Virus record (IMG/VR): IMGVR_UViG_3300049856_000052
Location: 1-52,037 of that record
Origin: a virus
Taxonomy: Duplodnaviria; Caudoviricetes
Strand: one strand, 5' to 3'
Length of the DNA: 52,037 nt
Made by a program: the position numbers and the translations under genes. Below, in pieces: positions 1-39,886 of this stretch. Position 1 is the stretch's first letter; every line of letters begins with the position of its first letter. The notes beneath the pieces are model-generated. The model had not been told where the DNA came from and searched no databases. It saw only the letters and a program-made list of their open reading frames with translations.

Positions 1-115
1 AAAGCGAAGGAGGTTTGGAGAGTGCAGAGTTTAGAAAGCTGTGGCAAGATAGTGAAGACATTAAAAACCGTAATGGTAATATGCCGCCGAAGGGTCCAGA
101 TAAGAAGTTCCAAGC
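1..115 (+). repeat. 115-bp exact direct repeat, copy 1 (copy 2 at 49786-49900)
   Basis: Direct base-by-base comparison; the copies diverge after ...aagttccaagc. Confidence 0.97.
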
Positions 116-3537: not shown

Positions 3538-3757
3538 AAATAGTAGAGTTATTAACAATCTTGAATTCAATTACAGTGATGTTAGGGAATCTATCAGCAA
3601 GAGCTTTCACAAACTCTTCTTCAGGAAGTTCTGGATTCTGAATAAAGATAGCGTAGTTTTCGATGTCGAAACTTTCGTTGTTGTTAGTGCTTGTGAATGT
3701 AATAACACAATCGAACTCACGGAACTCACTGTAAATTTTCTTTAATGTTGCGTTCAT
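3527..3757 (-). CDS. Hypothetical protein
   Basis: ATGA overlap with the upstream gene; fills the operon. Confidence 0.6.
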   Translation of the reverse strand: MNATLKKIYSEFREFDCVITFTSTNNNESFDIENYAIFIQNPELPEEEFVKALADRFPNITVIEFKIVNNSTIYER

Positions 3758-5094
3758 TTGATTACTTTGAATCGGAATTTACCGTTTATTATTTCTTGTT
3801 TAACTTTCCCTGTTGAAGTCAAGTATTCACAGAGAGATTCTAGTTCTACTGGCGTGGTAATATCAGAGAAGAACTTAGCCCAGATTTCAGCTTTGTCCAT
3901 CGGCTTCTCTTCAAGAGCTTTCAATACTTTATCCGCAACATTACGAAGAGGGTTGCGCGACGCCGTGCTCAAAGCTAAGTGCATAGATAGTTCTATGCTG
4001 TCTAGTAGAGCTACAGCTTTCTCACAAGTATTGTGATTTATTACCATGTCAGTTGTTTCTGAAAAGTGCATTGCTGTTATCAGCTTTTGGATATGAATGT
4101 TCTTTCGAGAGTAGTAGTAAATTAACTTTGAGTCGTTGTTAGTTTTAGCTCTCTGTTCTCCTAACACGTCTTCAATGTAATACTTCATGAAGGCATGTGC
4201 GTCAGGAGAATAAGATACTTTTCCAAATAGTTTTCCAAGATTTCCTAAGTGGTCAACGACTTGTTTCTTAGCTAAGAATTGACTCTCATCCATGCTAGAA
4301 ACGTCGAAGCGATAGAACCTATTCTTCTCTGCATATACGAATAAGACCCGCGACGCAAAACCATCATTAAGAAGTCTGTCATTGAATGTCTCCTTCATGA
4401 AAGATGGAGTAGTCCCTGCAACAAGGTTTAAGCAAGAGTTAATTACCCTGTCAGAACCTCTTCCAATCGTAGTGTATTTATAGTCTTTGCAGTCGAACGC
4501 TGTGATTAAGTATTGAACTACGTCTTCTGTGTGCTTTCTAAACAGTGAGGAGATTTCTTCCAAGACGAAGCTCAAGCTAGAGTGAGTATAGAGTCCTGAT
4601 TTAAGAAGCTTACTATTTTTATCCACTTCTGGAAAGATACTCCGAAGGCTTTGTGAATGAGTCTTTACGAGAGCTTCATAAGTAATAGCATTAGAAGCGA
4701 GAGGAAACATTAGAGGCTCCTCCATGCTTGTCATCTTCTTAAAGTTACCGTTAGGTTCCTTTCCATTAGAAGTTTCCATCTCAGCAATAAGAGCCGCCAA
4801 AGCATCGGCTTGTTCTTGCGTAGTAGAAGAAGCATCTGGCTTCTTAATCTGCATCTTTAAGAGTTTGTGTGTTCGCAAAGCTCCTACGATTGGGTCAAGT
4901 GCAATACCTTTGCCTACACCGGGGTCACCAATCAAGATGATATACATGTTTGGAAACAGCGGTCGTTCATCTGAACCAAGATATACGCGTCGCTGAAGAG
5001 CGGCGGCTATCATTGAGTAGTAAGACATCGTGATGAAAGAGGTTGGCGCAATCGCGTCTTTCATGTAATGATGCCAAGAGTCGAAGTTTGTCAA
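3754..5094 (-). CDS. DUF3987-like P-loop NTPase, putative replicative helicase
   Basis: Walker A GDPGVGKG, Walker B-like FVLEE, GTTP and GFASRVLFV; lies next to the DNA polymerase genes. Confidence 0.7.
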   Translation of the reverse strand: MTNFDSWHHYMKDAIAPTSFITMSYYSMIAAALQRRVYLGSDERPLFPNMYIILIGDPGVGKGIALDPIVGALRTHKLLKMQIKKPDASSTTQEQADALAALIAEMETSNGKEPNGNFKKMTSMEEPLMFPLASNAITYEALVKTHSQSLRSIFPEVDKNSKLLKSGLYTHSSLSFVLEEISSLFRKHTEDVVQYLITAFDCKDYKYTTIGRGSDRVINSCLNLVAGTTPSFMKETFNDRLLNDGFASRVLFVYAEKNRFYRFDVSSMDESQFLAKKQVVDHLGNLGKLFGKVSYSPDAHAFMKYYIEDVLGEQRAKTNNDSKLIYYYSRKNIHIQKLITAMHFSETTDMVINHNTCEKAVALLDSIELSMHLALSTASRNPLRNVADKVLKALEEKPMDKAEIWAKFFSDITTPVELESLCEYLTSTGKVKQEIINGKFRFKVIK

Positions 5095-6071
5095 AGTATA
5101 ATCTCCTTCATCCCATCTGGATTATTTTGTTCATCCCACTTTCCCCAATTCTTTCCAATGCTCACTTCTGTCTTCATCTGAAAGTGTTCTCCACTAGAGG
5201 ACACAAGTTTGACGCTCATAATATCTGACAGCGTCTTAGCTGCTTCTAGGGATTCTGCTTCGGAAGATTGTATCAACACTGAATCATGTTTGTTGTTCAA
5301 AACATCCCATTGTTTATTGTTAAGTTCTACAAACATTTGCATGTCTGAAAATCCATTAGCTCCAATAACTCCCACTGTTGATTGCGGAACCCAAGCTACT
5401 CCTTCTCTGATAATTTTGTCTGTGATATGAGAACCAAAGTGCATAGGAAATCCATAAAGATTTCTTAGTGTTCTTGTGCTACGAATAGTCTCTTCTGTTT
5501 TCTTTTGCCACTCTTTAATTTCTGGGAAGAGAGCATGATAAATTCCTTCAAAGAATTCTGACTGAGCTAGGCTTAGAGCTACTTTTCCTTCTGTCTCTTT
5601 AAGAACATCAAACCTAAACGATGCCGCCGTCTTGCAATAGTTAAATGAGTGGCAAGTCTTTTTACCAATGAAGTATCTCTCTTGAGAATTCTTGATTATC
5701 TTGCTGAGTTTCTTCCACTCAGGGTGAATAGCTAACTCAGGTATCGGGAGTGAACAAAGGTTCGCTATGTCATAAGGCTGTTCTTTTTTCCACTCGGCGG
5801 CGAACAGATTCATAGCTACAAAAGTATGAGGCTTAATCCCATTCTGAAATAGACTCCTGAATCTTCCTTCTCTACATTCCCAAGCAACAATTAGTGCTTC
5901 TGCTCCCGCACAATCCACTTGAATAAAGACTTTGTCGTCGTCAGGAATATAGATTTTGCAGATGTCATCAGAAGGATTCTGAAGGTTAGAACCAATACTA
6001 CCAATTAACATTCCAGACTTGTTTCTGAACGTTTTAGTTCCACCGGGACTCCAATGACAGGTGTTTCTCAT
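5091..6071 (-). CDS. polA: Family A DNA polymerase, palm/fingers subunit of a split gene
   Basis: NLQN, motif A (VDCAGAE), motif B (RYFIGKKTCHSFNY) and motif C (KHDSVL). ATG at 6071 overlaps the upstream TGA (ATGA). Confidence 0.9.
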   Translation of the reverse strand: MRNTCHWSPGGTKTFRNKSGMLIGSIGSNLQNPSDDICKIYIPDDDKVFIQVDCAGAEALIVAWECREGRFRSLFQNGIKPHTFVAMNLFAAEWKKEQPYDIANLCSLPIPELAIHPEWKKLSKIIKNSQERYFIGKKTCHSFNYCKTAASFRFDVLKETEGKVALSLAQSEFFEGIYHALFPEIKEWQKKTEETIRSTRTLRNLYGFPMHFGSHITDKIIREGVAWVPQSTVGVIGANGFSDMQMFVELNNKQWDVLNNKHDSVLIQSSEAESLEAAKTLSDIMSVKLVSSSGEHFQMKTEVSIGKNWGKWDEQNNPDGMKEIIL

Positions 6072-7564
6072 ATTGTTTTCCAAGGGGTAAACCCTAAACT
6101 ACCTGTTTCTTTTTTACGTTGCCTGTATTTAATGCAGAAATCTATCGCGACATTGAACGGAAACTTCTGCTTTAGTTTAAGCAATTCTATTTCCCCGAGA
6201 GAAGGTTCTTCTGTCTTCTTACTTCTTCCTACGATTGGATAGTTAAGTGCATCATGGAAATACCTAACGCATGACTTAGAAGATGTAGCAAGCAATTCCA
6301 TTTCAGGACCAACTAAGTAGTTCAACGCTCTTTGATAACCATTCATCAACTTATCGTTATCAGCAATCATCTTCTGCCGCTTACTCTCATCGAACTTCAT
6401 ACCAAGTAATGTGTTCAGTAGAAATGGATAGATACTTCTATTGCTCTGGTCGATAGACTCTCGCAATCCTTTAATATCATCCGCATAACTAAGCTGCGCC
6501 GCGCGTATCCATTTCATGGCTGCGACATCTTTAGCATTGTAGGACCATAGTTGTTTCTCTTGATGTAAATTCTGCGGCTCAAAGATTCCTTCATCTTTAT
6601 GAAATGGTTCCCAGATAGAAGGCCAAATACTTAGACAATGCCCTAAACTTTTTTCCGCTTCTGGGAAGCAGCGATGTTGACTAAGCATTGTATCATAGAT
6701 ATTCCATGTAAAGGGGAGTGAGTATTTAGTTGAGAGAACATACAAGTCGAACATACTATTATGAACAACAGTCGTATTATTCATGATAGCTTTTGCTAAT
6801 GCTCTGAAAAGCCTGAATGTTGAATCTCCGTAAGCTAGTGCATAATCATATCGTAAGACTGGAACAGTATAAACAGGAGTATCCCCCTCAAAACTAAAAC
6901 CAAAGCATAACATATTTTGGTTGGAATCGGTTTCAATATCCAAGTAGAAATTACTACCTTTAGTTTCTTCAAGGACTTTGAGAACAGCGTGCAGTTGCGG
7001 GTAGATGTCAATATCATATACATGGGACTTCGTCCTGTTAGCATCTTCCATTCCATACAATATCTTCTTAACATCTTTTGCTAAGAAGAACCTAAAGTTA
7101 GCGCGGCGCGTTTTACCGTGTCTCTTCTTAGTATTAACTTCATCTTCCCCTCCACCTTCCCTCTCTTCATCCTTAGAGGTAAGAGCAGAGTTAAACTTAG
7201 ATTCATAGTCTTGTGGGTCGATAGCATCTTGAGGGCTATAAGAACAGATAACAGGAACTCCAAACTTATTTCTTAGAGGAGTTCCTCTTAGCTCATTGAT
7301 TGAATACTCTGAGTAACCATCTGCCCACTCATGCAATGACCGCTCCCCCAACAAGAGAATAGCTTTTGTGTTTGGCAAAAGACCTGCTCCTAAAGTGTCA
7401 GCAGTTCTAATGTCACAACGCCATCGACTTGTTAGAGAAGCTAAACAATCTTGATTAAAGAATACTCCTGCGTATCCAGACAAGAGCGTAGTTAAGTCTT
7501 GCCTACTTGGTTGCGACAAGACTATGGTAAGCCCGCAGTATTCTTTAGAAGGAAGATGTCTCAT
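6068..7564 (-). CDS. Family A DNA polymerase, N-terminal subunit: degenerate UDG-like domain, 3'-5' exonuclease and thumb
   Basis: Exo I DIETD, Exo II HNSMFD, YDTML, Exo III YNAKD and thumb GMKFD. The N-terminus has family-4 UDG-like elements (ILLLG, LRG, ICSYSP). Confidence 0.85.
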   Translation of the reverse strand: MRHLPSKEYCGLTIVLSQPSRQDLTTLLSGYAGVFFNQDCLASLTSRWRCDIRTADTLGAGLLPNTKAILLLGERSLHEWADGYSEYSINELRGTPLRNKFGVPVICSYSPQDAIDPQDYESKFNSALTSKDEEREGGGEDEVNTKKRHGKTRRANFRFFLAKDVKKILYGMEDANRTKSHVYDIDIYPQLHAVLKVLEETKGSNFYLDIETDSNQNMLCFGFSFEGDTPVYTVPVLRYDYALAYGDSTFRLFRALAKAIMNNTTVVHNSMFDLYVLSTKYSLPFTWNIYDTMLSQHRCFPEAEKSLGHCLSIWPSIWEPFHKDEGIFEPQNLHQEKQLWSYNAKDVAAMKWIRAAQLSYADDIKGLRESIDQSNRSIYPFLLNTLLGMKFDESKRQKMIADNDKLMNGYQRALNYLVGPEMELLATSSKSCVRYFHDALNYPIVGRSKKTEEPSLGEIELLKLKQKFPFNVAIDFCIKYRQRKKETGSLGFTPWKTI

Positions 7565-9350: not shown

Positions 9351-10058
9351 TTAATCAATAAAAATTTTCTTCCAATCAAACTTATTACCTTCAAACCAGA
9401 AGCTCTGTCCCATTAGATGCTGGCACCTACTGCCACAAGCAATAGTTTCAGAAGTCTTAAAGTTTACACCGAGGTTCCCTTCTTTGTCGCGAGTTACGTA
9501 ACCAATAGCATCCACAAGGGAGCACATGATTGTCCTAACTTTTCCTGTCAAGTTCAAGTCTTTAGAACTTACTTCTCTTCCTTGCGACTCAAGCATCTTA
9601 TCTCGAACATGTCCGACAAAGATAACAGAACGAGCAAGAGGATAAGCGAGTTGCATGAGTTCAGCAAAAGCATCTCTAAGCCACAGATAGCCAGCACCAT
9701 TAGGAAGAAACAGAACTGATTTCCCCATAAAGTTTTTACCTACATTGGAGGCTTTGTAATTAAGCGTCGCCAACTCTTCCGCCCATTCTTCCAATTTATC
9801 AACGGTATCAATTGATACATACTTGTAAGGTCTTGGCTGTTTAGCACAAATCATCTCACAGATTTTCCGGTAATCAGCAATGGATGTTGGTTTAATCTTG
9901 AGAGCCTCCATCAACTCTGTTCCATTTTCCAAATCAATAATCAAGTTGTCTTCCAGTTGGCTAAGGATAGTTGTCTTCCCTACTTTAGGTGGTCCATAGA
10001 GAAGGATGTAGCGAGGGTCTTTACGTTCTGCTGGTGTTTTTGATGTTGGTAGTTGCAT
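9351..10058 (-). CDS. AAA_24 / Sak4-like ATPase (single-strand annealing)
   Basis: LLYGPPKVGKTT, IIDLENG, SIDT, FVGH and DAIGY. Confidence 0.85.
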   Translation of the reverse strand: MQLPTSKTPAERKDPRYILLYGPPKVGKTTILSQLEDNLIIDLENGTELMEALKIKPTSIADYRKICEMICAKQPRPYKYVSIDTVDKLEEWAEELATLNYKASNVGKNFMGKSVLFLPNGAGYLWLRDAFAELMQLAYPLARSVIFVGHVRDKMLESQGREVSSKDLNLTGKVRTIMCSLVDAIGYVTRDKEGNLGVNFKTSETIACGSRCQHLMGQSFWFEGNKFDWKKIFID

Positions 10059-10522: not shown

Positions 10523-11068
10523 TTAGACCTTCAACCTTTCTCTCGCGAACTGACAAGCCCATCTACACTCAAGTTCAAACTCTCTAAGATTAGAACCGTT
10601 GTTGTAAAGCAGGAAGTCTTGTTTAATCTTATCCAATTCTGTTTCGCTTATGTGTATGTCTTCATTGATATGTCCTTTCTTAGTTACCTTAAAGATAATC
10701 CCTTCTTGTGCCTTCACCCACTTCGCCTCTTCCACAAAACGCAAGTCAGGAATTAAGATGATAGCAGGTTCTTTGAGTGCAGCAATCTCTTTCTCTAAAG
10801 CTTTAATCCAGACATCTGAACCTCGTTCACCTTTTGCAAACTCAGTCCCATACCACTGAAGCATGTGCCTAATCACTGGATTATTCTTATTAGCTTCTAA
10901 CCATTCAAGTGATTGCCCCAAGATTTCTGAAAGTTCTTTCTTGAGATTAAAAGCAAAAGAGAATATCTGAATGTTGTGAGTTACATGAGGGAGAAGACGC
11001 TTAAAATTTGAAGCAGCAGTATCTTTACCTGAACCTTTGTATCCTGAGAAAGCTATAATTTTTGGCAT
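10523..11068 (-). CDS. Deoxynucleoside monophosphate kinase
   Basis: FSGYKGSGKDT, FA..LK, R..LQ..GTE, DLRF..E and H.SE motifs. Confidence 0.9.
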   Translation of the reverse strand: MPKIIAFSGYKGSGKDTAASNFKRLLPHVTHNIQIFSFAFNLKKELSEILGQSLEWLEANKNNPVIRHMLQWYGTEFAKGERGSDVWIKALEKEIAALKEPAIILIPDLRFVEEAKWVKAQEGIIFKVTKKGHINEDIHISETELDKIKQDFLLYNNGSNLREFELECRWACQFARERLKV

Positions 11069-11333: not shown

Positions 11334-11807
11334 TTAAAACCCAAACCCAACCGCCGCTTCAAACCGCATCTCAGTCTTATGCTTGAAGTCATCAACCAGA
11401 TAACCTCCAACACGAGAACTAATTTTGTCAGTAATCATAGCAGCAATACCACCACCAACTTTATACTGCCAGTTCTCATTGACTTCAAACCCTTTCAATG
11501 TTCCAAGCGAAGCAAAGAGTGAAATCTTTGAGTCTTTGCTAACAGGAACATAGTAGTTAAGAGCCGCCGAACCTTCGTCCAACACGCTATGATGGGTGTC
11601 ATAGGTAACACCTTGAACCTGAACTCCCAAGTTCTTAATAGGGAAGAGTTCAAACCCAAGACCTCCACCTTGCTTCGCATTGCTGAATTTCAAATCAGAG
11701 ACAGCAACAGAGTAAACTGATTGCACGTTCCAATTCTTCCAGTCTGCACACTTAGCACTGAGAAGGGCGAGAGCACTGAACACTGCACATGTAATGTATT
11801 TCTTCAT
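11334..11807 (-). CDS. Outer-membrane beta-barrel protein (about 8 strands)
   Basis: Sec signal peptide, alternating amphipathic strands and a C-terminal VGFGF beta-signal. Confidence 0.8.
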   Translation of the reverse strand: MKKYITCAVFSALALLSAKCADWKNWNVQSVYSVAVSDLKFSNAKQGGGLGFELFPIKNLGVQVQGVTYDTHHSVLDEGSAALNYYVPVSKDSKISLFASLGTLKGFEVNENWQYKVGGGIAAMITDKISSRVGGYLVDDFKHKTEMRFEAAVGFGF

Positions 11808-12823
11808 TTTATGTTTTCGGTATGTTGTTTGTTTTTCTTATCGCCGCCGCCAAACTCTAGCGGACGGTAATCTGTTTTCTTGAAGTTGTTAGAAAGAATA
11901 GTTTCAAACAACAGCTTGCTATCTTCCCTCTCGCTTAACCCTACACAAGAGGAACAAGCATGATAGAATGTGCAGTTAGAACCATAGCCAACTTGACAGT
12001 GACCATTGATGATCCCTTCTGCTAATGGGTAGTCACCACCCTTTGTAAATCTTTTCCAATCAATGACAAGTTTTGTCACAACAGCATTTAACATTTGAGT
12101 ATAGTTCAACATGTCACTGTCAGAGAACTGAAAAACTTGAGAGCGTTTGAACTCTACCCCATCCTTAGCACTTAGGAAGGCTCCATAAATAAATGCGCCA
12201 ACCTTCGGTGCGCCCTCAAAAGCTTTTGCGAAAGGACTTGTTGGATAGTGTTTCTTATACCAATCAATAGCCCATCTATAGGTGCGTAATTGAGTTGACA
12301 TCTTATAGCCATAGAAATAATCTTCTGGGTCTCTAGCCCTAGTTGTTTTCCAATCCCCTAAAGCGGGACACCCTTTAGCAATTTGAAATACTCCATCCAT
12401 CGTCCCCTGAATTAGGACATCAACTTCATCATCAGAGTAAAGAGGAATAGAGAACTTACATTCAGCCAATGCTGTATCCCCAATCTTAATGTAAGGACAT
12501 TGAGTAAAGATGTCATTAGTTTGCAACTCCATGAAGAACTTAGTAAGTGTCATTGCGAGATGCTTCCTGTCTAAGAATCTAGCAGTGGACTTAATCTCAC
12601 AGTCGTTAATCATTGAGTCCCACTTAGCAAGTGCTGCCTCGTTCGCCTCGAAAGGAGACTTACCTTTAGCAACAAGCTCGGCGGCGAGATGAAAGCAAGT
12701 TCCATACAGCAAATCATTGCTTTCTTTTCTAACCCTCAACCCTTCTCCTACTGTTAGGAGTAGCTTCCTTCCACAAGAAGCATGTTTCAAACTACTGGCA
12801 TCAACGCATAATACTTTTTTCAT
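11804..12823 (-). CDS. PD-(D/E)XK Cas4/AddB-like exonuclease
   Basis: N-terminal Cys, G..FH, E...G..D...DWKT, QL..Y and three C-terminal Cys (Fe-S pattern). Confidence 0.85.
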   Translation of the reverse strand: MKKVLCVDASSLKHASCGRKLLLTVGEGLRVRKESNDLLYGTCFHLAAELVAKGKSPFEANEAALAKWDSMINDCEIKSTARFLDRKHLAMTLTKFFMELQTNDIFTQCPYIKIGDTALAECKFSIPLYSDDEVDVLIQGTMDGVFQIAKGCPALGDWKTTRARDPEDYFYGYKMSTQLRTYRWAIDWYKKHYPTSPFAKAFEGAPKVGAFIYGAFLSAKDGVEFKRSQVFQFSDSDMLNYTQMLNAVVTKLVIDWKRFTKGGDYPLAEGIINGHCQVGYGSNCTFYHACSSCVGLSEREDSKLLFETILSNNFKKTDYRPLEFGGGDKKNKQHTENIK

Positions 12824-13588: not shown

Positions 13589-14211
13589 ACTAGTTTCTTT
13601 CTCTCCTTAATAAGTTCTACAAGTTTCTTACTCTTGCACACTTTGAAAGAAGTGGCAGTCATCTTAATCAAGGCTACTTGTTCTCGCATAGGAGCTAAGA
13701 ATCCTGCTATCCAATCCATATCTTCTTCTACAAAGGGAATACCTCCTACTTCGAGCGGCGCATGTTCATCACCTTCTAGTTCTACGTAATCAACAAGTTG
13801 TGTTCTCCAATCTACTGCTGGTTTGTTATCGGAAGTTACTTCCCCTTCTAATCCTTTGAAAGTGTTATGCCTTCCATGCACGATGGAAACTGTTGTCTTC
13901 CCTTTCTGAATCCTAGTAATGTCTTTGAGTAATTTATATTTACCATCTGCGTCCGCATGTTCAATAAGCCAAAGCCATCCTTGGTAAATTCGCATATAGC
14001 AGGAGAGCACTGTCATCCTAAGTTTCTTAGCATCGAATGTTACTTTCTTTGTGACATCACTGTGAAGTTCATCAAGGAAAGGCTTCAAAGTAAGAGCATG
14101 CTTTTGGGTAAAGTAAGGGGAGATAGAAGACTTCCTCCACCCTTCAGGAACTTTTCCTTCATAGTTAACTCTTGCCCTGAGACGATTAGGCATAGAAGCT
14201 TTTTGTGACAT
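13585..14211 (-). CDS. Hypothetical protein
   Basis: 208-aa ORF within the operon. Confidence 0.7.
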   Translation of the reverse strand: MSQKASMPNRLRARVNYEGKVPEGWRKSSISPYFTQKHALTLKPFLDELHSDVTKKVTFDAKKLRMTVLSCYMRIYQGWLWLIEHADADGKYKLLKDITRIQKGKTTVSIVHGRHNTFKGLEGEVTSDNKPAVDWRTQLVDYVELEGDEHAPLEVGGIPFVEEDMDWIAGFLAPMREQVALIKMTATSFKVCKSKKLVELIKERKKLV

Positions 14212-14648
14212 AGGATAAGACTAGGAAATTAAATGGCTCCATAATCGGAGGAGCCTGCCGGTATCAGCGTATCTGGATACTTTGCTAGGTTATAGCACTA
14301 GACTAACCATCATAACGCTGGGCTATCCTACTGAGCAGCGGCACCAAAGATTTAATCTCTTTGAAATCTTTTGCGAGATAAGTCAACCTCATTATACACT
14401 TGAGGTGAAGTGTCTGAGAACATAGATGTTAGTTCTCAGAGTTCTACCTCTCCACTATCCTATGCACTAAGGGTAGGGAGGGACATGCCGCACCAACTAC
14501 TGTGCTGAATAATGTTGAAGTAGAAAGCATTAGAAATTTTGTGTAACATTCTTAGTTTAGCCATACGAACACACAAGGAATCTTCTTGGCGTCACACACA
14601 ACTAAGATAGAGATGGTTACACTCACCTTATTATGCGTCGAAGATTCC

Positions 14649-14951
14649 TTATTTAATAATGATTTGCTGGCGAGGGGTAGGTTTCCTCAAGTTAATTCCC
14701 ATGTCAGGAGCAGAGGGAACAGCAAAAGTAAATGCTAGAACTTGGGCATAGAAACTAGGAGTCCTATTAGTAGAGACTGCCAATTTCGTTTCCAACTCTT
14801 GCCCATGTTGCGCCCACCATATGAAAGGATTATGCCCAGCTTTACCTGCATACTCCATCACTTTTGTCTTGATAGCATCAAGATGTTTCTCTGCTTTACT
14901 CCAATCCAATACTGGAGGAACTGTTGCTTTAGGGGGATTTGTTTCAGCCAT
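14649..14951 (-). CDS. Hypothetical protein
   Basis: First ORF downstream of the sigma54 motif at 14991-15007. Confidence 0.65.
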   Translation of the reverse strand: MAETNPPKATVPPVLDWSKAEKHLDAIKTKVMEYAGKAGHNPFIWWAQHGQELETKLAVSTNRTPSFYAQVLAFTFAVPSAPDMGINLRKPTPRQQIIIK

Positions 14952-14990
14952 AAGTAGTAATATACAACGGTTATGTTGTTAACAAGTCTT

Positions 14991-15007
14991 AGCAAGATTC
15001 ATGCCAA
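14991..15007 (-). promoter_or_regulatory. sigma54 (-24/-12) promoter
   Basis: Minus strand TTGGCATGAATCTTGCT, identical to the 17-mer upstream of the capsid gene; intergenic. Confidence 0.85.
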
Positions 15008-15008
15008 G

Positions 15009-15872
15009 CTATTTTATTTTTCCAAGTATTTTATATCGCAACACTTGAGCTTGTAACGAACGAACATTACCGGAGAGGGAGAAGAACTCTTTATAGATGT
15101 CGTCTGCTTTGTCATCAGGTTTTGTTTTAGCAAAGTTCATGAACTCCGTTACTAACCCTTCTCCTCCCAGTGAATCAACAATGTCTTCGATATCACATAT
15201 TCTTTGATCTAACCCTTTAGTCTTTAGCTCGAATGTATTGAGTCGATAGAGAACATCTTCCCTAAAGTTTATGGTAGAGAGTTCCTTGTTCGTCGCCGCC
15301 ACTACCCTACAATTGATTGGCTCTTCGATGTCACTACCAATAGGGCACACTACCTTCTCTTGTAGAACTCTTAGCAATTTAGCTTGCATACTCTGTGGCA
15401 TATCCCCAATCTCATCTAGGAATATAGTCCCACCAAACGCAGCCCTGAACTTACCTACCCTTTCAGTGATTGCTCCAGTGAAAGCTCCTTTAGCATGACC
15501 AAAGAGTTCTGATTCAATCAATTCATCCGGGAGTCCTGTGCAATTAACTGCTACGAACTTACCTTTTCTGCTACCATGCAATGCTCTAGCTAGCAATTCC
15601 TTTCCTGTCCCACTTGGTCCTTGGATAAGAACTGGATACTCATACCCTTGCAAGAGTTGAGCTTGCTCTTTTACTAGCTGAGTCTCTGGGTCATTGGTAA
15701 TATAGGAGTCCAATACCTTCTCGGCAGCACAAGAGAAGAATGGGTAATAACCCTTAACCCCTTGTGTTACTGCGATAGCTCTTGCTGATACTTCTTGCTG
15801 TTCTGCTAGTGTTTTCTGTCCATTAGTCCAAAGTGTCCTAATGAAGTCTGACGCATTTTTAATTGGTTGCAT
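15009..15872 (-). CDS. sigma54-dependent activator (bacterial enhancer-binding protein AAA+ domain) without HTH
   Basis: [61 protein letters not shown] and GNVRSL; the protein ends about 13 aa later. Confidence 0.95.
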
Positions 15873-15874
15873 AA

Positions 15875-17041
15875 TTATTCCTCATCTTCTTCGTCATCAC
15901 CCAGTAAATCTTCTTGGATTATTACTGACTCATCTACTGGTATAACAACTTCCGGTGACTTGTTCATGATTACATCTTCCCAAGATTCTCTTTGCCTAAT
16001 CACTTTCTTTAAGCATTTAAGCTTAGCACTGACTGCTGTCGCCACTGCTACTTCAATCGTCCCACGATAGAACACAATAATCTGACTTGTATCACTGAGA
16101 GAAGTGAGTCGAGGAGCACGACCCAATCCCTGAACCAGTTCGATTGCTGAATATGTAGGGGCCAAAAATGTAACGCGAGGACGAGTGGTGATATTAGGAA
16201 TATCTTCTTCATAAGCAAAGTTTGATTCTGGTTTACGTCTAACCTTTTGCTTAGTCATCTCATCAGTGTGATGCAAGGACAAGCCGACGCCGCCAGACTT
16301 GAAGTTGAATAGACAATAAAGAGCTTCTCCACTCTGGAATCTATCAATCTCTTCTTGCCTCTGTTCATAATCTTGCGGCCCTAAGTTTAGTTCAGGAGGT
16401 AAGTTTCCTAGTCCTGCTATATCAGCAAGCAACTGTTGCTTCATCTTCTTCATCTTGTTCAAGTCGATACTTCCTCCAGCAATTACTGAAGCGAGCAATG
16501 CTTGAATCTCATCTTGTTCAAAGCGTTCCTCTTGTGTAGCAGAGAACACTGAACTACCTCCCCAAATTAAGGAAATCTTTTTCCTCGGCACACCGTAAGT
16601 AGAATAAAGAATATGAGCAACCTTAGCAATAGTTGCTTTGAAGTTGCAAGCGCATACTGCTGCCATCCCATACTTCTCCACTTGTTCATTCATTTGTCTA
16701 GCTAAGATCGGAGCACGAATAAGTTCCGCTTCTTGCCTGAACTTTAACCACTCAACTAGTTGTGCGAATGAAGATGTATGCCCTTCTAGTTTGTTTACTG
16801 CTAAACAATACTTCTCGTATGCTTGATTGTATCTTTGTTCATCCTTTGGTGAATCAAAATCAATCATCATAATTCTGTTATGAGCATTGAATTGCGGACG
16901 CACATTCTTAACATCAACGATGTAGTCTGCTATCTCTTTCATCAAGCGTTCTGTTGCTGCTTCACAGTATTCTATTGGGTCTGATGGAGCAGCAATGAAC
17001 CTTGACCAGAGCGGCCAGTGTTGTTTGTCTAGTGTGGGCAT
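15875..17041 (-). CDS. SF2 helicase, C-terminal RecA lobe (split gene; SNF2/strawberry-notch-like)
   Basis: Motif V GGVGLSLH, motif [10 protein letters not shown] and GTIE; no Walker A or B. Confidence 0.8.
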
Positions 17042-17047
17042 AATCTT

Positions 17048-17131
17048 TTAGTATTTAATCATGCACCAAAAGAAGAAGCCTAAAAAGATTAGGCAAGTCA
17101 CTACTACTACTATACATTCTTGTGTGTTCAT
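17048..17131 (-). CDS. 27-aa single-pass membrane microprotein (not in ORF track)
   Basis: MNTQECIVVVVTCLIFLGFFFWCMIKY; its ATG overlaps the upstream TGA and it fills the gap between the helicase halves. Confidence 0.6.
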   Translation of the reverse strand: MNTQECIVVVVTCLIFLGFFFWCMIKY

Positions 17132-18078
17132 AATTTGTATTGCATCCCTAAGTTTACACAAAAGTATTTAGCTTCACACACCCTCGTCCAAGGCGTCGCC
17201 GAACTAAATACCATCTTTACATTTGGGTCTTCAATGTCAGCTAAATTCTGAATGATTTGACTCTGTGTTGAGTCTTCATTCTTTGCGCTCTGACATTCAT
17301 CAATTACCACGAAGAGTGGATGTAAGAACTTTCTCCACTTGTATTCTATTACTTGTTCTCCATTAACTACCTTCTTCACTTTCTCAATGACAGTCTCCAT
17401 CCCTTTTGCTGAACGAAGAGCATCAAAGTTAATCACCCTGAATTGTTTAACTGGACACAACTTGAAGTGATTCTCTAGCACCCGCCTTGTTTGCTTAACT
17501 ATGCTAGCTTTTGTTATGATAAGTGCTGGCCAAGGTGAATAAGTTCTACCCTCGAACCATCCTGATTGCCACAACTCTGCTAACAAAGCACCATAAATAA
17601 ATGTTTTACCTGTCCCCACTCCTGCTGGCAACAATAAAGCTCTCTTATTTTCTACTAAGAGTTTATGCTTCAACTCTTTCGTCGCTTTGATTTGGTGTCG
17701 ATAGAGTGTGACTGGATATTTAGCAATGAGGTCTGTGCTAGTTTTAGGGACAACAGATTCAACAATAGCAGGAAGATTATCATTCTTGGGAATCTCTATT
17801 TGTTTTGGAGAAGCTACTATTGCTTGTTCATCTAGCACTTCTTTCCTAAGAACTTCTCTGAAAGATTCCTCAAGTGGATTAGCTATGTGAACATTGTAAG
17901 CACTGATTGTTAGTGGCTCATCTAATGCTAAAGCTGGGAAGCGTTCATGGGGAACCGACAAGAAGTTTAACACTTCCCTTGCTGTCTTAATCTTCTTTAG
18001 AGATAGGTCTAGGCGGCACCTATTTAGGGATTGCTGATAGAGTGTTAAACGTTTCTTTCGCAGAGTTGAAGGTTGCAT
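17128..18078 (-). CDS. SF2 helicase, N-terminal ATPase lobe (split gene)
   Basis: Q-motif LYRHQ, Walker A GVGTGKT, Walker B IDECQ and motif III SATP; the ORF stops soon after. Confidence 0.85.
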   Translation of the reverse strand: MQPSTLRKKRLTLYQQSLNRCRLDLSLKKIKTAREVLNFLSVPHERFPALALDEPLTISAYNVHIANPLEESFREVLRKEVLDEQAIVASPKQIEIPKNDNLPAIVESVVPKTSTDLIAKYPVTLYRHQIKATKELKHKLLVENKRALLLPAGVGTGKTFIYGALLAELWQSGWFEGRTYSPWPALIITKASIVKQTRRVLENHFKLCPVKQFRVINFDALRSAKGMETVIEKVKKVVNGEQVIEYKWRKFLHPLFVVIDECQSAKNEDSTQSQIIQNLADIEDPNVKMVFSSATPWTRVCEAKYFCVNLGMQYKL

Positions 18079-18081
18079 AGT

Positions 18082-18300
18082 TCATGCGCAATTGATTAGT
18101 TCATGTTGTTCCCAAAGTCTGTTGAGTAGGTCTTGATAATGATTATGGGTCATCACTACTACATTCATATTAGCAAACGCTGGAATTCTTGGGATATGAC
18201 CAGCTTGTGTTCTCAATTCTCCTTTGCTATTAAGCATAAGTTGAGGAGGTTTTGCTGAATAACCTTTTGCTGATTGTGGGGAAACAACTTCGTGTATCAT
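18082..18300 (-). CDS. Hypothetical protein
   Basis: Coupled ORF. Confidence 0.55.
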   Translation of the reverse strand: MIHEVVSPQSAKGYSAKPPQLMLNSKGELRTQAGHIPRIPAFANMNVVVMTHNHYQDLLNRLWEQHELINCA

Positions 18301-18743
18301 AGCTTTAGTTTTTCAATGTCAATTCCAAAAGGAGCAAGCGAACTCCAATCCTGTAGCTTAACTGCATTGTAAGCTAACGCTCTACAGAAAGGAAGTCCTA
18401 GCATAGGAGCTTTCTTGAAGATAGCTTCCGCAATCATGTCCGCATTATGATTAAAGTTTGTGGACATCACCTTCATCTTTGCTGTTCTCTCACCTGCTGT
18501 CCTCCATTCTTCATATCTCCAGACTACTGATTGCGCGCCCTCAATGTCTTCTATGTAGATGCCTGCTTCTTTAAGGTCTGGTATTTGTTCCCTGATTATC
18601 TTGATTACTTCTTCTCCGGGAACTGCTCTATCCCTAAGCTCCACTCCCTTCTTGTAGCTCCAAAGTAGGATTAGAAATAGTGACCTTGGAATTGTCATTG
18701 ATTCTTCTTGCTTTTTTCCTAATTCTTTTTGCTGTTCGTCCAT
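18297..18743 (-). CDS. Hypothetical protein
   Basis: 148-aa ORF within the operon. Confidence 0.65.
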   Translation of the reverse strand: MDEQQKELGKKQEESMTIPRSLFLILLWSYKKGVELRDRAVPGEEVIKIIREQIPDLKEAGIYIEDIEGAQSVVWRYEEWRTAGERTAKMKVMSTNFNHNADMIAEAIFKKAPMLGLPFCRALAYNAVKLQDWSSLAPFGIDIEKLKL

Positions 18744-18897
18744 TTAATTTTTCTCCCACGTTGATAAATTGTCCCTTAGAGGTTTGAAGATAAGAAGTTT
18801 TAGAATAATGAACTATGCGTTCATCTTCTATACTTTGAAGAGGAAGACTGTTTGAAACTTTGAGTTCTCTTAACGCTAATACTTTTGTTGATGGCAT
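18634..18897 (-). CDS. Hypothetical protein
   Basis: Fills the gap but overlaps the next gene by 110 nt. Confidence 0.4.
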   Translation of the reverse strand: MPSTKVLALRELKVSNSLPLQSIEDERIVHYSKTSYLQTSKGQFINVGEKLNGRTAKRIRKKARRINDNSKVTISNPTLELQEGSGA

Positions 18898-18930
18898 AAA
18901 ATAAAAATTCCCGTTATAGCACGACGGGAA
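18898..18930 (-). terminator. Probable intrinsic terminator
   Basis: Minus strand TTCCCGT-9 nt-ACGGGAA followed by TTTTTATTTT. Confidence 0.55.
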
Positions 18931-19010
18931 AAGCGAGGCTATTCATCTATCTTGGCGACACTAATAGCGGAATGTCAGGAGACGAGAGGAGACAACTCTC
19001 TGCCAAGAAA

Positions 19011-19571
19011 TTACTTCTCGTCAGAACGGCGAGTGCGTTTCTTAGCTTCGATAGCAGCTTCGAGTTCTGCAATCTTAGCAGCGATGGAGATACCTTCGCT
19101 GAAGGCAGCAGCACGCTGTTCGGTAGTGAAATTAGGATTAGTAGAAGCTGCCGTATAAAGGGCAGTCATCTGCTTAACCATATCTTCACGCTCTTCACGG
19201 AGTTCCTTAGCAGTAACGCCACCCTTGACGGCACCACTGAGGATAGTGTCAACAACTTGGTCCCAGTTAACACTGTCAGCATCATAGAACTCCTGTTCAA
19301 GTTCCTTACCAGTCTCAGCATCAGCAACAACTCGCTTCTGCCAACCTGCGTCGCCGAGTGTGTAGTCAAGAGCAGCTTGACCATTAGCCTTCGCTGCACG
19401 AGCAAGGATGTCAACTGCCTCTTTCTTACCGAGGAAGTTAACATAGTCTGCAAGGTTCTCTTCAGTAGGAACAAACGCAAGGTAGAGTTGACCTCGCGCG
19501 GCACCACGGATGATAGTTTGAGGAACTGCTTCAAAAGCAACTCCATTACGTTCGCGAACAATTGTATTCAT
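19011..19571 (-). CDS. Hypothetical protein with C-terminal coiled coil
   Basis: A-rich leader; first gene after the sigma54 motif at 19700. Confidence 0.75.
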   Translation of the reverse strand: MNTIVRERNGVAFEAVPQTIIRGAARGQLYLAFVPTEENLADYVNFLGKKEAVDILARAAKANGQAALDYTLGDAGWQKRVVADAETGKELEQEFYDADSVNWDQVVDTILSGAVKGGVTAKELREEREDMVKQMTALYTAASTNPNFTTEQRAAAFSEGISIAAKIAELEAAIEAKKRTRRSDEK

Positions 19572-19699
19572 GTTGTTTGTTTTTCTATTTAGTTCTTGTT
19601 AGATAGAGATAGACAGAAACACTCTGTATATTTTACTAGCGAGAATTGCTAAACTACTAATTAAGGACTAAGGTTGAAAGAATAAGGACAAGTCTCTCT

Positions 19700-19716
19700 A
19701 GCAGGACTCATGCCAA
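19700..19716 (-). promoter_or_regulatory. sigma54 (-24/-12) promoter
   Basis: Minus strand TTGGCATGAGTCCTGCT (GG-N10-GC); intergenic. Confidence 0.75.
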
Positions 19717-19729
19717 AGGATTTAATAGG

Positions 19730-19909
19730 TTAGTCTTGCAACTTAATGCAAGAGCTAAACTTAGAATTCTTGGGGAACCATTCCCCAATGTTAGAAGAAT
19801 CATTCTTGTCATGCACTACTAAATAGTGTGTTGATGATTCTTTGATGATGGTTCCTGTGAAGGATTGTGATTTACCATCAGGACGACTAATAAGGATTGA
19901 GGCTTTCAT
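19730..19909 (-). CDS. 59-aa hypothetical protein (not in ORF track)
   Basis: [12 protein letters not shown]...CIKLQD; ATGA overlap with the ligase stop. Confidence 0.6.
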   Translation of the reverse strand: MKASILISRPDGKSQSFTGTIIKESSTHYLVVHDKNDSSNIGEWFPKNSKFSSCIKLQD

Positions 19910-20481
19910 TTTGTTTTCTTTGGTTTTACTAATAGTCGCTGACTTCCAAAGTCACGAGTCTTGATTTTTACCATTCGCCCATCAGGATGATGCCAGACGA
20001 TGCCTTCGATATCTTTGCCACTTAGATACAACTTGAGTTCATCATAAGAGCGTGGCGCATCATTCAGAACTTCGCACCCGTGAGCAATAAGTGTGTGTGT
20101 TGGTATGCCTTCTGGATTGCCTTGGATTTTTGGTCCGATGAGTTCATATGTCCCATCGGGCAAGTTTCCTCCAACCACATTCCACGCCTCACGATGCCAT
20201 TGGTCACTAGAATCATCTCCGACAAGCAGCCATCCGGGGTGATGACCAGTTACAAAGTCAGGTTCTTGTGCGGCCTCAAATCCGATTGGTGGTGTCTTTC
20301 CTTTTTTTGCGTCGTATCGCTTCCACAGTTTTCCATCCCGAATCATACAACACGTTCCATCATACTTGCGTGTAGCGACACCTTCACCGGCTGCCACCCA
20401 TTCAGCACCCGGCATGATTTCATTTCTTACAAGGCGGCTGCCTTCGTAGTTTCGTTGATACAGACTAATTATTTTTTTCAT
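19906..20481 (-). CDS. ATP-dependent RNA ligase-like protein (RLIG1/DUF5565-like)
   Basis: Motif [17 protein letters not shown], motif IV EGIVW and motif V KIK. Confidence 0.75.
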
Positions 20482-22511: not shown

Positions 22512-22528
22512 CTGGCATGGATATTGCA
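22512..22528 (+). promoter_or_regulatory. sigma54 (-24/-12) motif, antisense to the early arm
   Basis: CTGGCATGGATATTGCA in non-coding DNA. Confidence 0.55.
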
Positions 22529-22684: not shown

Positions 22685-22981
22685 TTATGGAATTGGACGA
22701 AGATGTTGTGGAATATTTTTTAAGAATTCGCTAAGGATTTCATACTGAATCCCTAGTTCTGCATTTTCTTCGTCGGAATTAGCCCAAATGAACAAAAATG
22801 CGGCACATTCTTTACAAGAAAGAATTGCTGCATAACTTTTTTCCATTGAGAGGCTTCCACTTGTGTCAACGATTGTGAGTTTCCAGTTGCCAGAATTAAG
22901 CCAAACAAGAGTAAACTCTTGGTCAGATTGTTGCGCATGGAGACTCGCTTCTCCGTTAGGTAGTGTTAGTATTGTTTGCAT
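22685..22981 (-). CDS. Hypothetical protein (start uncertain)
   Basis: ORF downstream of the sigma54 motif at 23099; ATG at 22981 preferred. Confidence 0.55.
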   Translation of the reverse strand: MQTILTLPNGEASLHAQQSDQEFTLVWLNSGNWKLTIVDTSGSLSMEKSYAAILSCKECAAFLFIWANSDEENAELGIQYEILSEFLKNIPQHLRPIP

Positions 22982-23098
22982 AGCTTTCAATAGTCCCTTC
23001 CTACTGACTCGCCCCTTTTCGTCCGGCGGCACAGTGCATAGATAGTTGTTCCGTGTTTACAACTTATCAATTAGGAAGACTTAGGACTTCCTGCATCT

Positions 23099-23115
23099 AG
23101 CAATTTCTGTGCCAC
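23099..23115 (-). promoter_or_regulatory. sigma54 (-24/-12) promoter
   Basis: Minus strand GTGGCACAGAAATTGCT, matching consensus TGGCAC-N5-TTGCW. Confidence 0.8.
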
Positions 23116-25122: not shown

Positions 25123-25348
25123 AGTGTCTATCTTCTGAGTGTTGATACGTGGACACACTTATTGCGTGCCTTATTCGTTCAATTCTCAAAAGATTGGACA
25201 CTATGCTCAATCTTTGTTCTCTAGTAGGCTATTCACGCGGGGCGAACATCCAGCGTCTAAAGAGACGGCGAACTCGCGACATCCGGCCTACCGTTTAAGT
25301 TGATCGCCTACCACGCACCTGCGCTTCTATCGGCGATGCCATACCTAT

Positions 25349-25365
25349 AGCAGAGTCAGTGCCAA
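25349..25365 (-). promoter_or_regulatory. sigma54 (-24/-12) promoter
   Basis: Minus strand TTGGCACTGACTCTGCT at the head of the leftward arm. Confidence 0.75.
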
Positions 25366-25412
25366 TCTAAAAATTCTCTTTAACTTGCTCCAGCTCAACA
25401 CTTTACCCCTTT

Positions 25413-25429
25413 TGCATATTCCATGCCAA
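25413..25429 (-). promoter_or_regulatory. sigma54 (-24/-12) promoter, tandem
   Basis: Minus strand TTGGCATGGAATATGCA, 64 bp upstream of the previous motif. Confidence 0.65.
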
Positions 25430-25449
25430 TTACCTCCTATGCGTGATTT

Positions 25450-25514
25450 TAACTCGTTGACTATCAACGACTTACACACTTTCCATCCATAACTCGTTGT
25501 CATTCAATAAGTTG
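25450..25514. promoter_or_regulatory. Cluster of IHF-like sites
   Basis: TATCAACGACTTA (25462-25474) fits WATCAANNNNTTR; near matches at 25450-25462 (minus strand) and 25502-25514. Confidence 0.5.
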
Positions 25515-26056
25515 TATTTCACTCCTTTTGCGTGAACTCCACGCTTATTAGTCGCACTCATTAAGCACTCCTAATCATTAGAAATGCCCGCTCCTAATGC
25601 TCCACTATTAGCGCGACTAATACTTTACTTATTTTCTAGTTTTGGTATGTTAATTGTTTGAAAGAGGATTAGCACCCGGCAAAAAGTTCCTAGTTGTAAA
25701 ATCGTGCGTAGTGCGAGTTAGTAGGATATAATATATTTAGATATAACTAAGAAATATTCTTCTAATTAAAATTATTAGGTTAATCTAACATTATTAGACT
25801 CCTTTTACACTATTAGACTCGTCTAACATTATTTCGCCCCACTAACATACAAGTCCCGTAATAGTCGCCCCACGTCACCATTCCCAACTAGGCAAAAATT
25901 GCCCGTTGCTAATCATGAGTATGTTGCTTAGGATACTTATGATTGAGAGCTTATCTAGTGTGCTATTGGTTAAGGGTAGCATGCTAACTTAGGGTATACC
26001 CCGAAATGAGATTGCGCGTTTACACAGAACCACTCCGATTTTTTTATTTTTTATCA

Positions 26057-26138
26057 AAAAATCCAAAATTCCCAAACACTAAATTCCTGAAACCCTGATA
26101 CACTAAATCCCTAAACTCTAAGCTACCCACTAAATTCT
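26057..26138 (+). repeat. Degenerate short tandem repeats (AAAYYCY-like, 7-9 nt)
   Basis: aaaatcc aaaattccc aaacact aaattcctg aaaccctg atacact aaatccct aaactct ... aaattct. Confidence 0.6.
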
Positions 26139-26155
26139 TTGGCACAAAACTTGCT
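26139..26155 (+). promoter_or_regulatory. sigma54 (-24/-12) promoter of the packaging/head operon
   Basis: TTGGCACAAAACTTGCT, perfect consensus, upstream of the terminase genes. Confidence 0.88.
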
Positions 26156-26270
26156 CTTCGAGGGTTATGCTAGAACTAAACTGGAAAGATAAACTTAGCT
26201 CAGAAGCTTGGAGCATGTGCGTGGAGTGTTCGATGTATATGCTGCTTCAGAAGGGCTGAACTGAGAACTT

Positions 26271-31872: not shown

Positions 31873-31889
31873 TTGGCATGAATCTTGCT
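31873..31889 (+). promoter_or_regulatory. sigma54 (-24/-12) promoter of the major capsid gene
   Basis: TTGGCATGAATCTTGCT, 3 bp after the scaffold stop; identical to the motif at 14991-15007. Confidence 0.88.
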
Positions 31890-39607: not shown

Positions 39608-39880
39608 ATGAAAACTGCTTGGGAAACTATTGTAGCATTTAAGTTGGTTTGGTTTAGAGTTGCTTGTTATTTTCTTATTCCTTTTCTTGACACTGCTTAC
39701 GAGCAATTCAAAGATTGGAATGGATTACTTTGGGACACTGCTCATTGGTTTGATATTACTATTAAGTTTGTGTATTCATTGAAGTTTGGTTTGTATTCCT
39801 TAATCGCTTTTGTTGACCAGAGTTTATCAAGAGCTAGGGATCATGCTGAGAATAAAAAAGAGAATAAGATTGGCACGTAA
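39608..39880 (+). CDS. Small membrane protein, possible holin
   Basis: Two hydrophobic segments and a charged C-terminus. Confidence 0.45.
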   Translation: MKTAWETIVAFKLVWFRVACYFLIPFLDTAYEQFKDWNGLLWDTAHWFDITIKFVYSLKFGLYSLIAFVDQSLSRARDHAENKKENKIGT

Positions 39881-39886
39881 AATGCT
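39870..39886 (+). promoter_or_regulatory. sigma54 (-24/-12) promoter of the tail/ejection operon
   Basis: TTGGCACGTAAAATGCT across the stop of the previous gene, 22 bp before ATG 39909. Confidence 0.75.

Follow-up and report, generated by a model that had tools for sequence, protein, structure and literature searches.

A core-only sigma-54 activator encoded by an uncultured phage, and sigma-54-type promoter motifs shared by its clade

The DNA considered here is a freshwater phage record of 52,037 bp (Caudoviricetes; IMG/VR IMGVR_UViG_3300049856_000052; CheckV completeness 100%, classed as linear), analysed over its whole length and referred to below as the window. A gene on its minus strand, at 15009-15872, codes for a 287-residue protein that has every sequence and fold property of a sigma-54 activator core (PF00158, AAA+ clade 6) and neither of the end domains of the classical activators; nine sigma-54-type promoter motifs lie in the intergenic DNA of the same genome, and the two properties recur together in related viruses. 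Of the transcription systems of bacteria, that of sigma-54 comes nearest to the logic by which eukaryotic enhancers activate genes, and the usual sigma-54 activator is a large machine that senses signals and is bound to DNA. We consider it probable that the phage protein is an enhancer-independent activator which, acting from solution, drives transcription of the phage genome through the sigma-54 polymerase of the host.

The phage activator is an AAA+ core with a short helical extension

The gene and the motifs of its product are listed below (positions in the window; aa, amino acids of the protein).

15009-15872, minus strand: minimal sigma-54 activator gene, 287 aa, ATG start; aa 1-57 form a helical extension and aa 58-287 the AAA+ core
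15597-15620, minus strand: Walker A, GPSGTGKE, aa 85-92; G85, G88, T89, G90, K91 and E92 invariant
aa 120-126: ESELFGH
15471-15488, minus strand: GAFTGA, loop L1, expected to contact sigma-54, aa 129-134; G129, T132 and A134 invariant, F131 and G133 at least 90% conserved
15405-15422, minus strand: Walker B, FLDEIG, aa 151-156; F151, L152, D153, E154 and G156 invariant
aa 203-212: arginine-finger stretch
15054-15071, minus strand: sensor II, GNVRSL, aa 268-273; N269 and R271 invariant

Conservation was scored in an alignment of 43 short family members (42-75% identity), in which the mean column identity is 47% and the columns of Walker A, ESELFG, the loop, Walker B, the arginine and sensor II show little or no variation. 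The Pfam family Sigma54_activat (PF00158) matches aa 58-216 with an E-value of 2.8e-55 and 187 bits (gathering cut-off, 20.2), covering positions 2-167 of the 168 of the profile; seven Pfam families are reported for the protein, those other than PF00158 are generic AAA+ families, and no DNA-binding or sensor domain is among them. With the NCBIfam models only the central parts of RtcR, PrdR, NorR, GlrR, NifA, NtrC and others align, at scores far below the curated cut-offs (for example, 215 bits vs 650), and in PHROGs the protein falls in phrog_7998, for which no function is annotated. An AlphaFold2 (AF2) model built from 43 homologues (predicted local distance difference test, pLDDT, 93.3; predicted template modelling score, pTM, 0.89) has the AAA+ fold with a terminal lid helix at 270-283. 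The best solved structures found with Foldseek are the AAA+ domains of FleQ, FlrC, NtrC4, NtrC1, ZraR, LuxO, NifA and PspF, with E-values of 9e-23 to 1e-17 for FleQ, FlrC, NtrC4, NtrC1, ZraR and PspF; about 238 columns are aligned, so that the N-terminal 45 residues or so are left over. The viral structure library BFVD gave only generic AAA+ proteins, at no more than 19% identity.

An earlier, sequence-only reading of this DNA had described a complete AAA+ core with all its motifs, no helix-turn-helix (HTH) and no sensor domain, and a stop about 13 residues after sensor II. The core and its motifs are borne out by Pfam, the motif positions, AF2 and Foldseek, and the lack of both end domains by Pfam, NCBIfam, the AF2 model and Foldseek; the stop codon lies 14 residues past sensor II. 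The same reading had spoken of about 60 unrelated N-terminal residues. The segment is indeed short (57 residues), but "unrelated" does not hold: homologues span 95-100% of the query, N-terminus included, and the AF2 model places helices at residues 7-16, 20-36 and 48-56, with pLDDT values of 84-95. The extension matches no Pfam family, a protein atlas search with residues 1-60 returned only sub-threshold helical look-alikes, and the segment is not basic (isoelectric point, pI, 7.9; family median, 7.8).

Set against the classical three-domain enhancer-binding protein, the activator has no C-terminal Fis-type HTH with which to bind an upstream enhancer, and the 57 residues that precede its core hold no receiver, GAF, PAS or V4R domain. 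Its composition is that of the core-only, FleT type, without regulatory and DNA-binding domains, and the protein is thus a virus-borne core-only form of sigma-54 activator. No sigma-54 DNA-binding domain was found encoded in the window, and the phage would therefore need the sigma-54 factor of its host.

Nine sigma-54-type sites lie between the genes of the window

The window was scanned first with TGGCAC-N5-TTGC, allowing up to two mismatches, then with GG-N10-GC and then with the strict pattern TGGCAY-N6-TGC. The best hits of the first scan are all intergenic. The strict pattern occurs nine times, where 0.52 occurrences are expected, and none of 100 shuffles reached nine; all nine sites are intergenic, in a genome whose intergenic DNA amounts to 6,222 nt (12%). 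Five sites point leftward and four rightward, and eight of the nine face a downstream open reading frame (ORF) that begins 24-192 nt away.

14992-15006, minus strand: sigma-54-type promoter TGGCATGAATCTTGC, 3 nt past the activator stop and 41 nt before ORF 14649-14951
19701-19715, minus strand: sigma-54-type promoter TGGCATGAGTCCTGC, in intergenic DNA 19572-19729, at the head of the block that runs from 19571 to 15009
22513-22527, plus strand: sigma-54-type site TGGCATGGATATTGC, rightward within the leftward arm, with no convincing ORF behind it
23100-23114, minus strand: sigma-54-type promoter TGGCACAGAAATTGC, 68 nt before ORF 22685-23032; no mismatch to TGGCAC-N5-TTGC
25350-25364, minus strand: sigma-54-type promoter TGGCACTGACTCTGC, heading the leftward arm
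25414-25428, minus strand: sigma-54-type promoter TGGCATGGAATATGC, in tandem with the last, 64 nt upstream of it; repeat family D2
26140-26154, plus strand: sigma-54-type promoter TGGCACAAAACTTGC, heading the virion arm, with ORF 26271 starting 117 nt downstream; no mismatch to TGGCAC-N5-TTGC
31874-31888, plus strand: sigma-54-type promoter TGGCATGAATCTTGC, 137 nt before the predicted major capsid gene 32025-33308
39871-39885, plus strand: sigma-54-type promoter TGGCACGTAAAATGC, 24 nt before ORF 39909-41084

The block from 19571 to 15009 holds a split helicase gene and the activator gene. Four leftward motifs had been noted upstream of the activator gene in the sequence-only reading, and they are found at 19701, 23100, 25350 and 25414, the nearest 3.8 kb from the gene and with several genes between. 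When the nine sites were aligned from -80 to +60, no common upstream, enhancer-like element was seen, and conservation is limited to the -24 and -12 elements and a T after the GC. RNA started at the rightward site at 22513 would be antisense to ORF 22685-23032, which is itself served by the site at 23100.

The activator belongs to a virus-linked family of short proteins

A word-indexed protein search returned at least 8000 hits, and 64 of the best 120 are no longer than 335 aa. Among the matches listed, the closest homologues share 45-75% identity over 95-100% of the query, several of them on contigs of 52-57 kb, a phage size, and the next-best matches are GlrR-type response regulators of 443-461 aa that align over the core only. 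An exhaustive search of 1.84 billion cluster representatives gave 131,378 hits, with 109 of the best 150 at or below 335 aa; among these short representatives the loop motif G[AST][FY]T[GD]A is found in 96, Walker A in 104 and Walker B in 103, and L1 appears in the family as GAFTGA, GSFTGA or GSYTGA.

Scanning viral contigs with the single protein gave no match, but an alignment-based scan of IMG/VR found 299 loci with a relative, and the best 80, many of them on contigs of 47-56 kb, were analysed. The short form (241-330 aa) is present in 72 of the 80, counting locus L002, whose frame was called at 355 aa; the other eight carry a long form of 344-654 aa, with a tail of 84-126 residues after sensor II. 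Within 10 kb of the activator gene, the 80 loci hold the C-terminal helicase ORF (60 loci), the N-terminal helicase ORF (49), the exonuclease (60), the two polymerase ORFs (52 and 42) and the primase (32). The family thus sits in a conserved helicase-activator-exonuclease-polymerase module of phages of about 50 kb. The GC content of the related loci spans 28% to 59%, and the phage clade is found in freshwater, marine and soil metagenomes.

In bacterial and archaeal genomes, which gave at least 600 matches, all 75 complete frames at the best 80 loci are at least 332 aa long, and no match at these loci exceeds 54% identity. A tblastn search of GenBank phages returned 65 records, all below 60% identity and none of them a Pseudomonas phage; megablast of positions 14000-20000 against deposited phages found no similar DNA. 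Most of the 65 "phage" records bear the names of bacterial assemblies (Salmonella, Acinetobacter, Listeria). Two "Bacteriophage sp." records among them (H7 and H8) were examined as possible relatives and set aside: their frames have 457 and 490 codons, and since the AAA+ core is flanked there by long N- and C-terminal regions, both look bacterial and not phage, which suggests that bacterial DNA has been filed within the phage collection. The short form is thus essentially a metagenomic, virus-linked family.

For phylogeny, a FastTree of 147 rows was computed. Its viral rows are the window, 64 unique short frames and nine long ones, and its cellular rows are 73 complete frames of up to 700 aa; duplicates (seven viral rows), incomplete frames (five cellular rows) and frames above 700 aa (two cellular rows) were left out. 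A branch with support 95 separates the 65 short rows and L002 from the rest. A quick IQ-TREE search under LG+C20+F+G4 by posterior mean site frequency (PMSF), limited to 240 core columns and to 70 rows (the window, all nine long viral frames, and random draws of 28 from the 64 short and 32 from the 73 cellular frames), recovered the same split between short viral and cellular sequences, with a Shimodaira-Hasegawa-like approximate likelihood ratio (SH-aLRT) of 100, and the long viral frames fall among the cellular sequences. That phage homologues might form a clade had been put forward earlier as a point for phylogeny, and they do so in the sense of one side of a well-supported branch: the tree is unrooted, its few cellular sequences were picked for their similarity, and branch support was computed without bootstrap.

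The promoter pattern accompanies the short activator in related viruses

At the 72 short-form loci (1.13 Mb) the strict pattern occurs 153 times, against 13.7 in shuffles, an 11-fold enrichment, and 69 of the loci have one site or more. The sites follow the activator's strand (135 of the 153) and lie mostly outside ORFs of at least 80 aa (112 of the 153), in loci where non-ORF DNA makes up 14.5%. The eight long-form viral loci, in contrast, hold one site, with 1.8 expected. At 80 bacterial loci 60 sites were counted vs 20.7 expected, an enrichment that can be put down to the real activator genes adjoining them. The canonical sigma-54 promoter consensus is TGGCACG-N4-TTGCW, and the bases that the pattern leaves free agree with it in the viral sites: G follows TGGCAY in 66% and T follows TGC in 90%.

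On the activator's strand, 44 of the 72 loci have a site between -15 and +100 nt of the activator stop, and 57 have one within 700 nt. The pattern was also counted in five whole related records, which measure 44.8-55.6 kb, are 90-100% complete and in three cases have terminal repeats: they hold 8, 8, 9, 6 and 7 sites (38), whereas the reversed pattern occurs 0, 0, 0, 0 and 1 times in the same records. In three of the five the strands of the sites are split by arm, minus in one arm and plus in the other; the remaining two have at least one exception each. A short activator together with genome-wide sigma-54 promoter motifs is therefore a property of the clade, across its whole range of GC content.

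A predicted switch acting through host sigma-54 polymerase

The closed complex of sigma-54 holoenzyme stays shut until the AAA+ ring of an activator hydrolyses ATP and engages region I through GAFTGA (excerpts of a 2020 review, PMC7175178), and an isolated AAA+ core, DctD250, activates many unrelated sigma-54 promoters in the absence of enhancer or signal (excerpts of PMC3844500). The phage activator would likewise assemble into a ring and hydrolyse ATP, and its GAFTGA loops would open host sigma-54 polymerase waiting at the nine -24/-12 promoters of the phage. As it has no DNA-binding domain, it would act from solution and not from an enhancer; as it has no sensor domain, the amount of activator made would be the main determinant of how active it is. 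Constitutive activity and the firing of host promoters, both proposed in the sequence-only reading, may follow.

Transcription would start with the helicase-activator block and then pass to the replication genes served by 14992 and to the virion genes served by 26140, 31874 and 39871; the conserved junction, in which a promoter comes straight after the activator gene, suggests such a cascade. The sites at 19701, 23100, 25350 and 25414, upstream of the activator's block, could provide the positive feedback proposed earlier. Because sites head the replication, virion and activator's own blocks, the activator would be the timing switch of the infection and would reinforce its own synthesis, and because closed complexes are silent until the ATPase acts, one small phage protein could serve as a tight, self-reinforcing master switch. 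The earlier claim that the protein fires phage sigma-54 promoters has gained strong, if indirect, support from the nine sites of the window, the 72 loci and five genomes, and the lack of a conserved upstream enhancer-like element. We lean towards the wider view that a clade of uncultured, podovirus-like phages of about 50 kb has given nearly its whole transcription programme to the sigma-54 polymerase of the host, each phage with its own minimal, sensor-less, enhancer-independent activator.

Several points weigh against this reading. The looser scans of the window showed no enrichment: TGGCAC-N5-TTGC with two mismatches gave 52 hits vs 38.2 expected (5 of 100 shuffles were as high) and GG-N10-GC gave 202 vs 187.6, and the strict pattern was picked after the hits of the looser scan had been viewed, a choice that the independent genomes and the reversed-pattern control answer only partly. 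Every recognisable promoter, including those upstream of the activator, is of the sigma-54 type, which leaves the first activator molecules unexplained. Promoters of the sigma-70 type are not enriched in the window (23 vs 27.3 expected), nor is the Bacteroidota -33/-7 pattern (2 vs 1.4 expected). Truncated activators that act from solution are about 10-fold weaker than enhancer-bound ones (excerpts of PMC3844500), and the conserved N-terminal helices could bind a partner, a regulator or DNA. That the host possesses sigma-54 is assumed. No RNA run contains the sequence; two DNA data sets match, a freshwater sediment metagenome, possibly the source, and a freshwater metagenome with a small share.

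A count of intergenic 9-mers in the window brought out no second motif. Individual candidates of the sigma-70 type exist and are unsupported, for example TTTACA-18-GATATT with a TG at 22219-22190 on the minus strand. A Shine-Dalgarno-like motif, even a loose one, precedes nine of 45 genes, and many leaders are A-rich, a weak hint of a host that makes little use of Shine-Dalgarno sequences, such as one of the Bacteroidota; the scan of cellular genomes, when searched for the host, showed among its matches only ordinary activators of many phyla.

Alternative explanations

FleT acts together with FleQ. By analogy, the phage protein may be a real activator that is neither autonomous nor constitutive, either because it works only in rings shared with a host activator, in the manner of FleT and FleQ, or because an inhibitor binds its N-terminal helices, as PspA binds PspF. 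We regard this as unlikely. The 57 N-terminal residues, conserved in the family and modelled as confident helices, do suggest a function beyond the ATPase, and FleT is the only cellular activator named as lacking both end domains in the excerpts of the 2020 review (PMC7175178). Mixed rings, however, would require a compatible partner in the very different hosts of loci that range from 28% to 59% GC, no neighbour conserved among the 80 loci offers itself as a partner apart from the replication genes, and isolated AAA+ cores suffice in other systems (excerpts of PMC3844500).

Host takeover or interference, in which the protein poisons the rings of host activators, sequesters sigma-54 or fires the host regulon indiscriminately, is very unlikely as its main role. 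Promiscuity, as seen with DctD250 (excerpts of PMC3844500), is to be expected of an activator reduced to its core, and a dominant-negative role had been raised as an alternative in the sequence-only reading. An inhibitor, however, would not need an invariant Walker B, arginine finger and sensor II, and takeover leaves unexplained why the motifs are 11-fold enriched, intergenic and co-oriented in phages with the gene and absent at the long-form viral loci. Effects on the host may arise as a side consequence.

It is highly improbable that the N-terminal segment is a cryptic DNA-binding module for phage enhancers, with the domains of an ordinary activator rearranged. Three short helices could in principle form an HTH, and the promoter at 26140 is preceded by CACTAAATTC-like repeats; against this, no DNA-binding family matched the protein, residues 1-60 drew only sub-threshold matches from the atlas, the segment is not basic, and the nine promoters share no upstream element.

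A last alternative is a passenger without a role, in the form of a host regulator captured and truncated not long ago, for which the GlrR-type regulators of cells, with about 59% identity over part of the core, might speak. A recently truncated host gene had been named in the sequence-only reading as a finding that would refute its proposal, and this alternative is already contradicted by the supported branch (SH-aLRT 100, FastTree 95) and the long internal branches, which argue against repeated recent truncation of host genes, by the conserved neighbourhood and motifs, by the length of all 75 complete cellular frames at the best 80 loci (at least 332 aa) and by an old, diverse clade of short viral forms with all catalytic residues kept.

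Comparison with known systems and implications

We return to the reading we prefer, that of an autonomous, solution-acting activator of phage promoters. FleT of Rhodobacter (Cereibacter) sphaeroides is given in the excerpts of the 2020 review as the only known activator without regulatory and DNA-binding domains (PMC7175178), and in lacking both it resembles the phage protein; FleT, however, is a cellular flagellar regulator, whereas the phage protein comes from a virus and is one of a large viral clade, with its own conserved 57-residue N-terminus and about nine promoters in its genome. The engineered core fragments DctD250 and PspF(1-275) have the same domain content, and the AAA+ domain of PspF is among the Foldseek matches, but both are laboratory truncations, weaker than their enhancer-bound parents, whereas the phage protein is natural and its form is kept family-wide. 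FlgR of Helicobacter and CtcC of Chlamydia are natural activators as well and lack a DNA-binding domain (excerpts of PMC7175178, where they are placed in group 5); unlike the phage activator, they keep a phosphorylatable receiver domain and respond to a kinase.

Among phages, transcription of the Pseudomonas phage YuA is reported to depend partly on host sigma-54 promoters (excerpts of 10.1101/2023.10.13.562163, citing Ceyssens 2008), and both phages would thus use promoters of this kind. YuA apparently has no such activator, since no Pseudomonas phage is among the 65 matching GenBank records, whereas the present phage supplies an activator itself and has sites on both arms of its genome. Htm (Gp204) of the T4-like Mosigvirus AV110 has an activator-like fold, no GAFTGA loop and an altered Walker B (preprint); both motifs are intact in the present activator. 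In the literature searched, which left most subscription journals and supplements outside, no phage-encoded activator with GAFTGA and no sigma-54-organised phage clade is described; a genome-wide sigma-54 regulatory strategy is thus unreported in that literature, and the activity of the protein is a prediction from sequence.

The core-only proteins described here form a virus-tied family of over a hundred clusters at 50% identity, vs the one natural case in the excerpts of the 2020 review (PMC7175178). If the proposal is right, they would constitute the first activator family that acts from solution in nature and would offer a natural system in which to study activation without enhancers, and the phages would follow a strategy that differs from those based on phage polymerases, on phage sigma factors or on appropriators of sigma-70, adding an entry to the short list of phage controls over host RNA polymerase. 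The hosts of the clade would then have to carry rpoN, the loss of which would be a route to phage resistance, and the 287-aa activator with its 15-bp promoter could provide compact orthogonal on-switches for synthetic biology.

Genome and gene content

The window has a GC content of about 40%, and no tRNA genes were found in it. Its leftward arm, with genes from about 25,160 down to 3,049, holds the replication genes; the rightward arm holds the virion genes, from 26,271 to the end of the contig.

3-3062, plus strand: giant ORF, 1019 aa, 5' end open; ART-PolyVal ADP-ribosyltransferase domain (E-value 2e-26)
3754-5094, leftward arm: primase
5091-7564, minus strand: DNA polymerase, in two consecutive ORFs
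9351-10058, leftward arm: Sak4-like annealing protein
10523-11068, leftward arm: deoxynucleoside monophosphate (dNMP) kinase
11804-12823, leftward arm: exonuclease
15875-18078, minus strand: SNF2/DEAD-type helicase, in two consecutive ORFs
19906-20481, minus strand: RNA ligase, 191 aa, in the early region; phrog_14301, full length, E-value 2e-81
39909-41084, plus strand: ORF with a Laminin_G_3 domain (Pfam), probably a fibre or receptor-binding protein
47379-52037, plus strand: giant ORF, 1553 aa, 3' end open; weak metallopeptidase-toxin match

Both halves of the polymerase (42 and 52 of the 80 loci) and of the helicase (60 and 49) are matched in many related loci. Most virion proteins, among them the presumed terminase, capsid and most tail proteins, have no PHROG or Pfam family match, and the presumed portal has only a sub-threshold Pfam match, to SU10_portal; to judge from these searches, the virion module (26271-47370, plus strand) is extremely remote from known phages. 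For ORF 32025-33308, which has 175 homologues, an AF2 model made from their alignment (pLDDT 81) matches HK97-fold capsids in Foldseek, best that of phage N4 (E-value 2.7e-11), and we therefore take it as the major capsid protein, recognisable by predicted fold only.

The contig starts and ends within the two giant ORFs, which resemble a giant "polyvalent" virion protein, a type presumed to be injected. They were tried as a virion RNA polymerase that might account for early transcription, and this was rejected: neither has a sequence match in PDB or any similarity to RNA polymerases, and Pfam reports only ART-PolyVal and the weak metallopeptidase. Nucleotides 1-115 are duplicated exactly at 49786-49900, giving about 38 identical residues in both giant ORFs, and plain circular joining of the contig ends would be out of frame; these ends may stem from a break at a repeat within the giant gene.

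The divergent arms are separated by a non-coding stretch of 1.1 kb (25159-26270). It contains several inverted repeats, three copies of a repeat rich in ATTAG, spaced 19 nt apart (25766-25833), and the CACTAAATTC-like repeats, which stand directly upstream of the 26140 promoter, and it is a candidate replication origin or control region.

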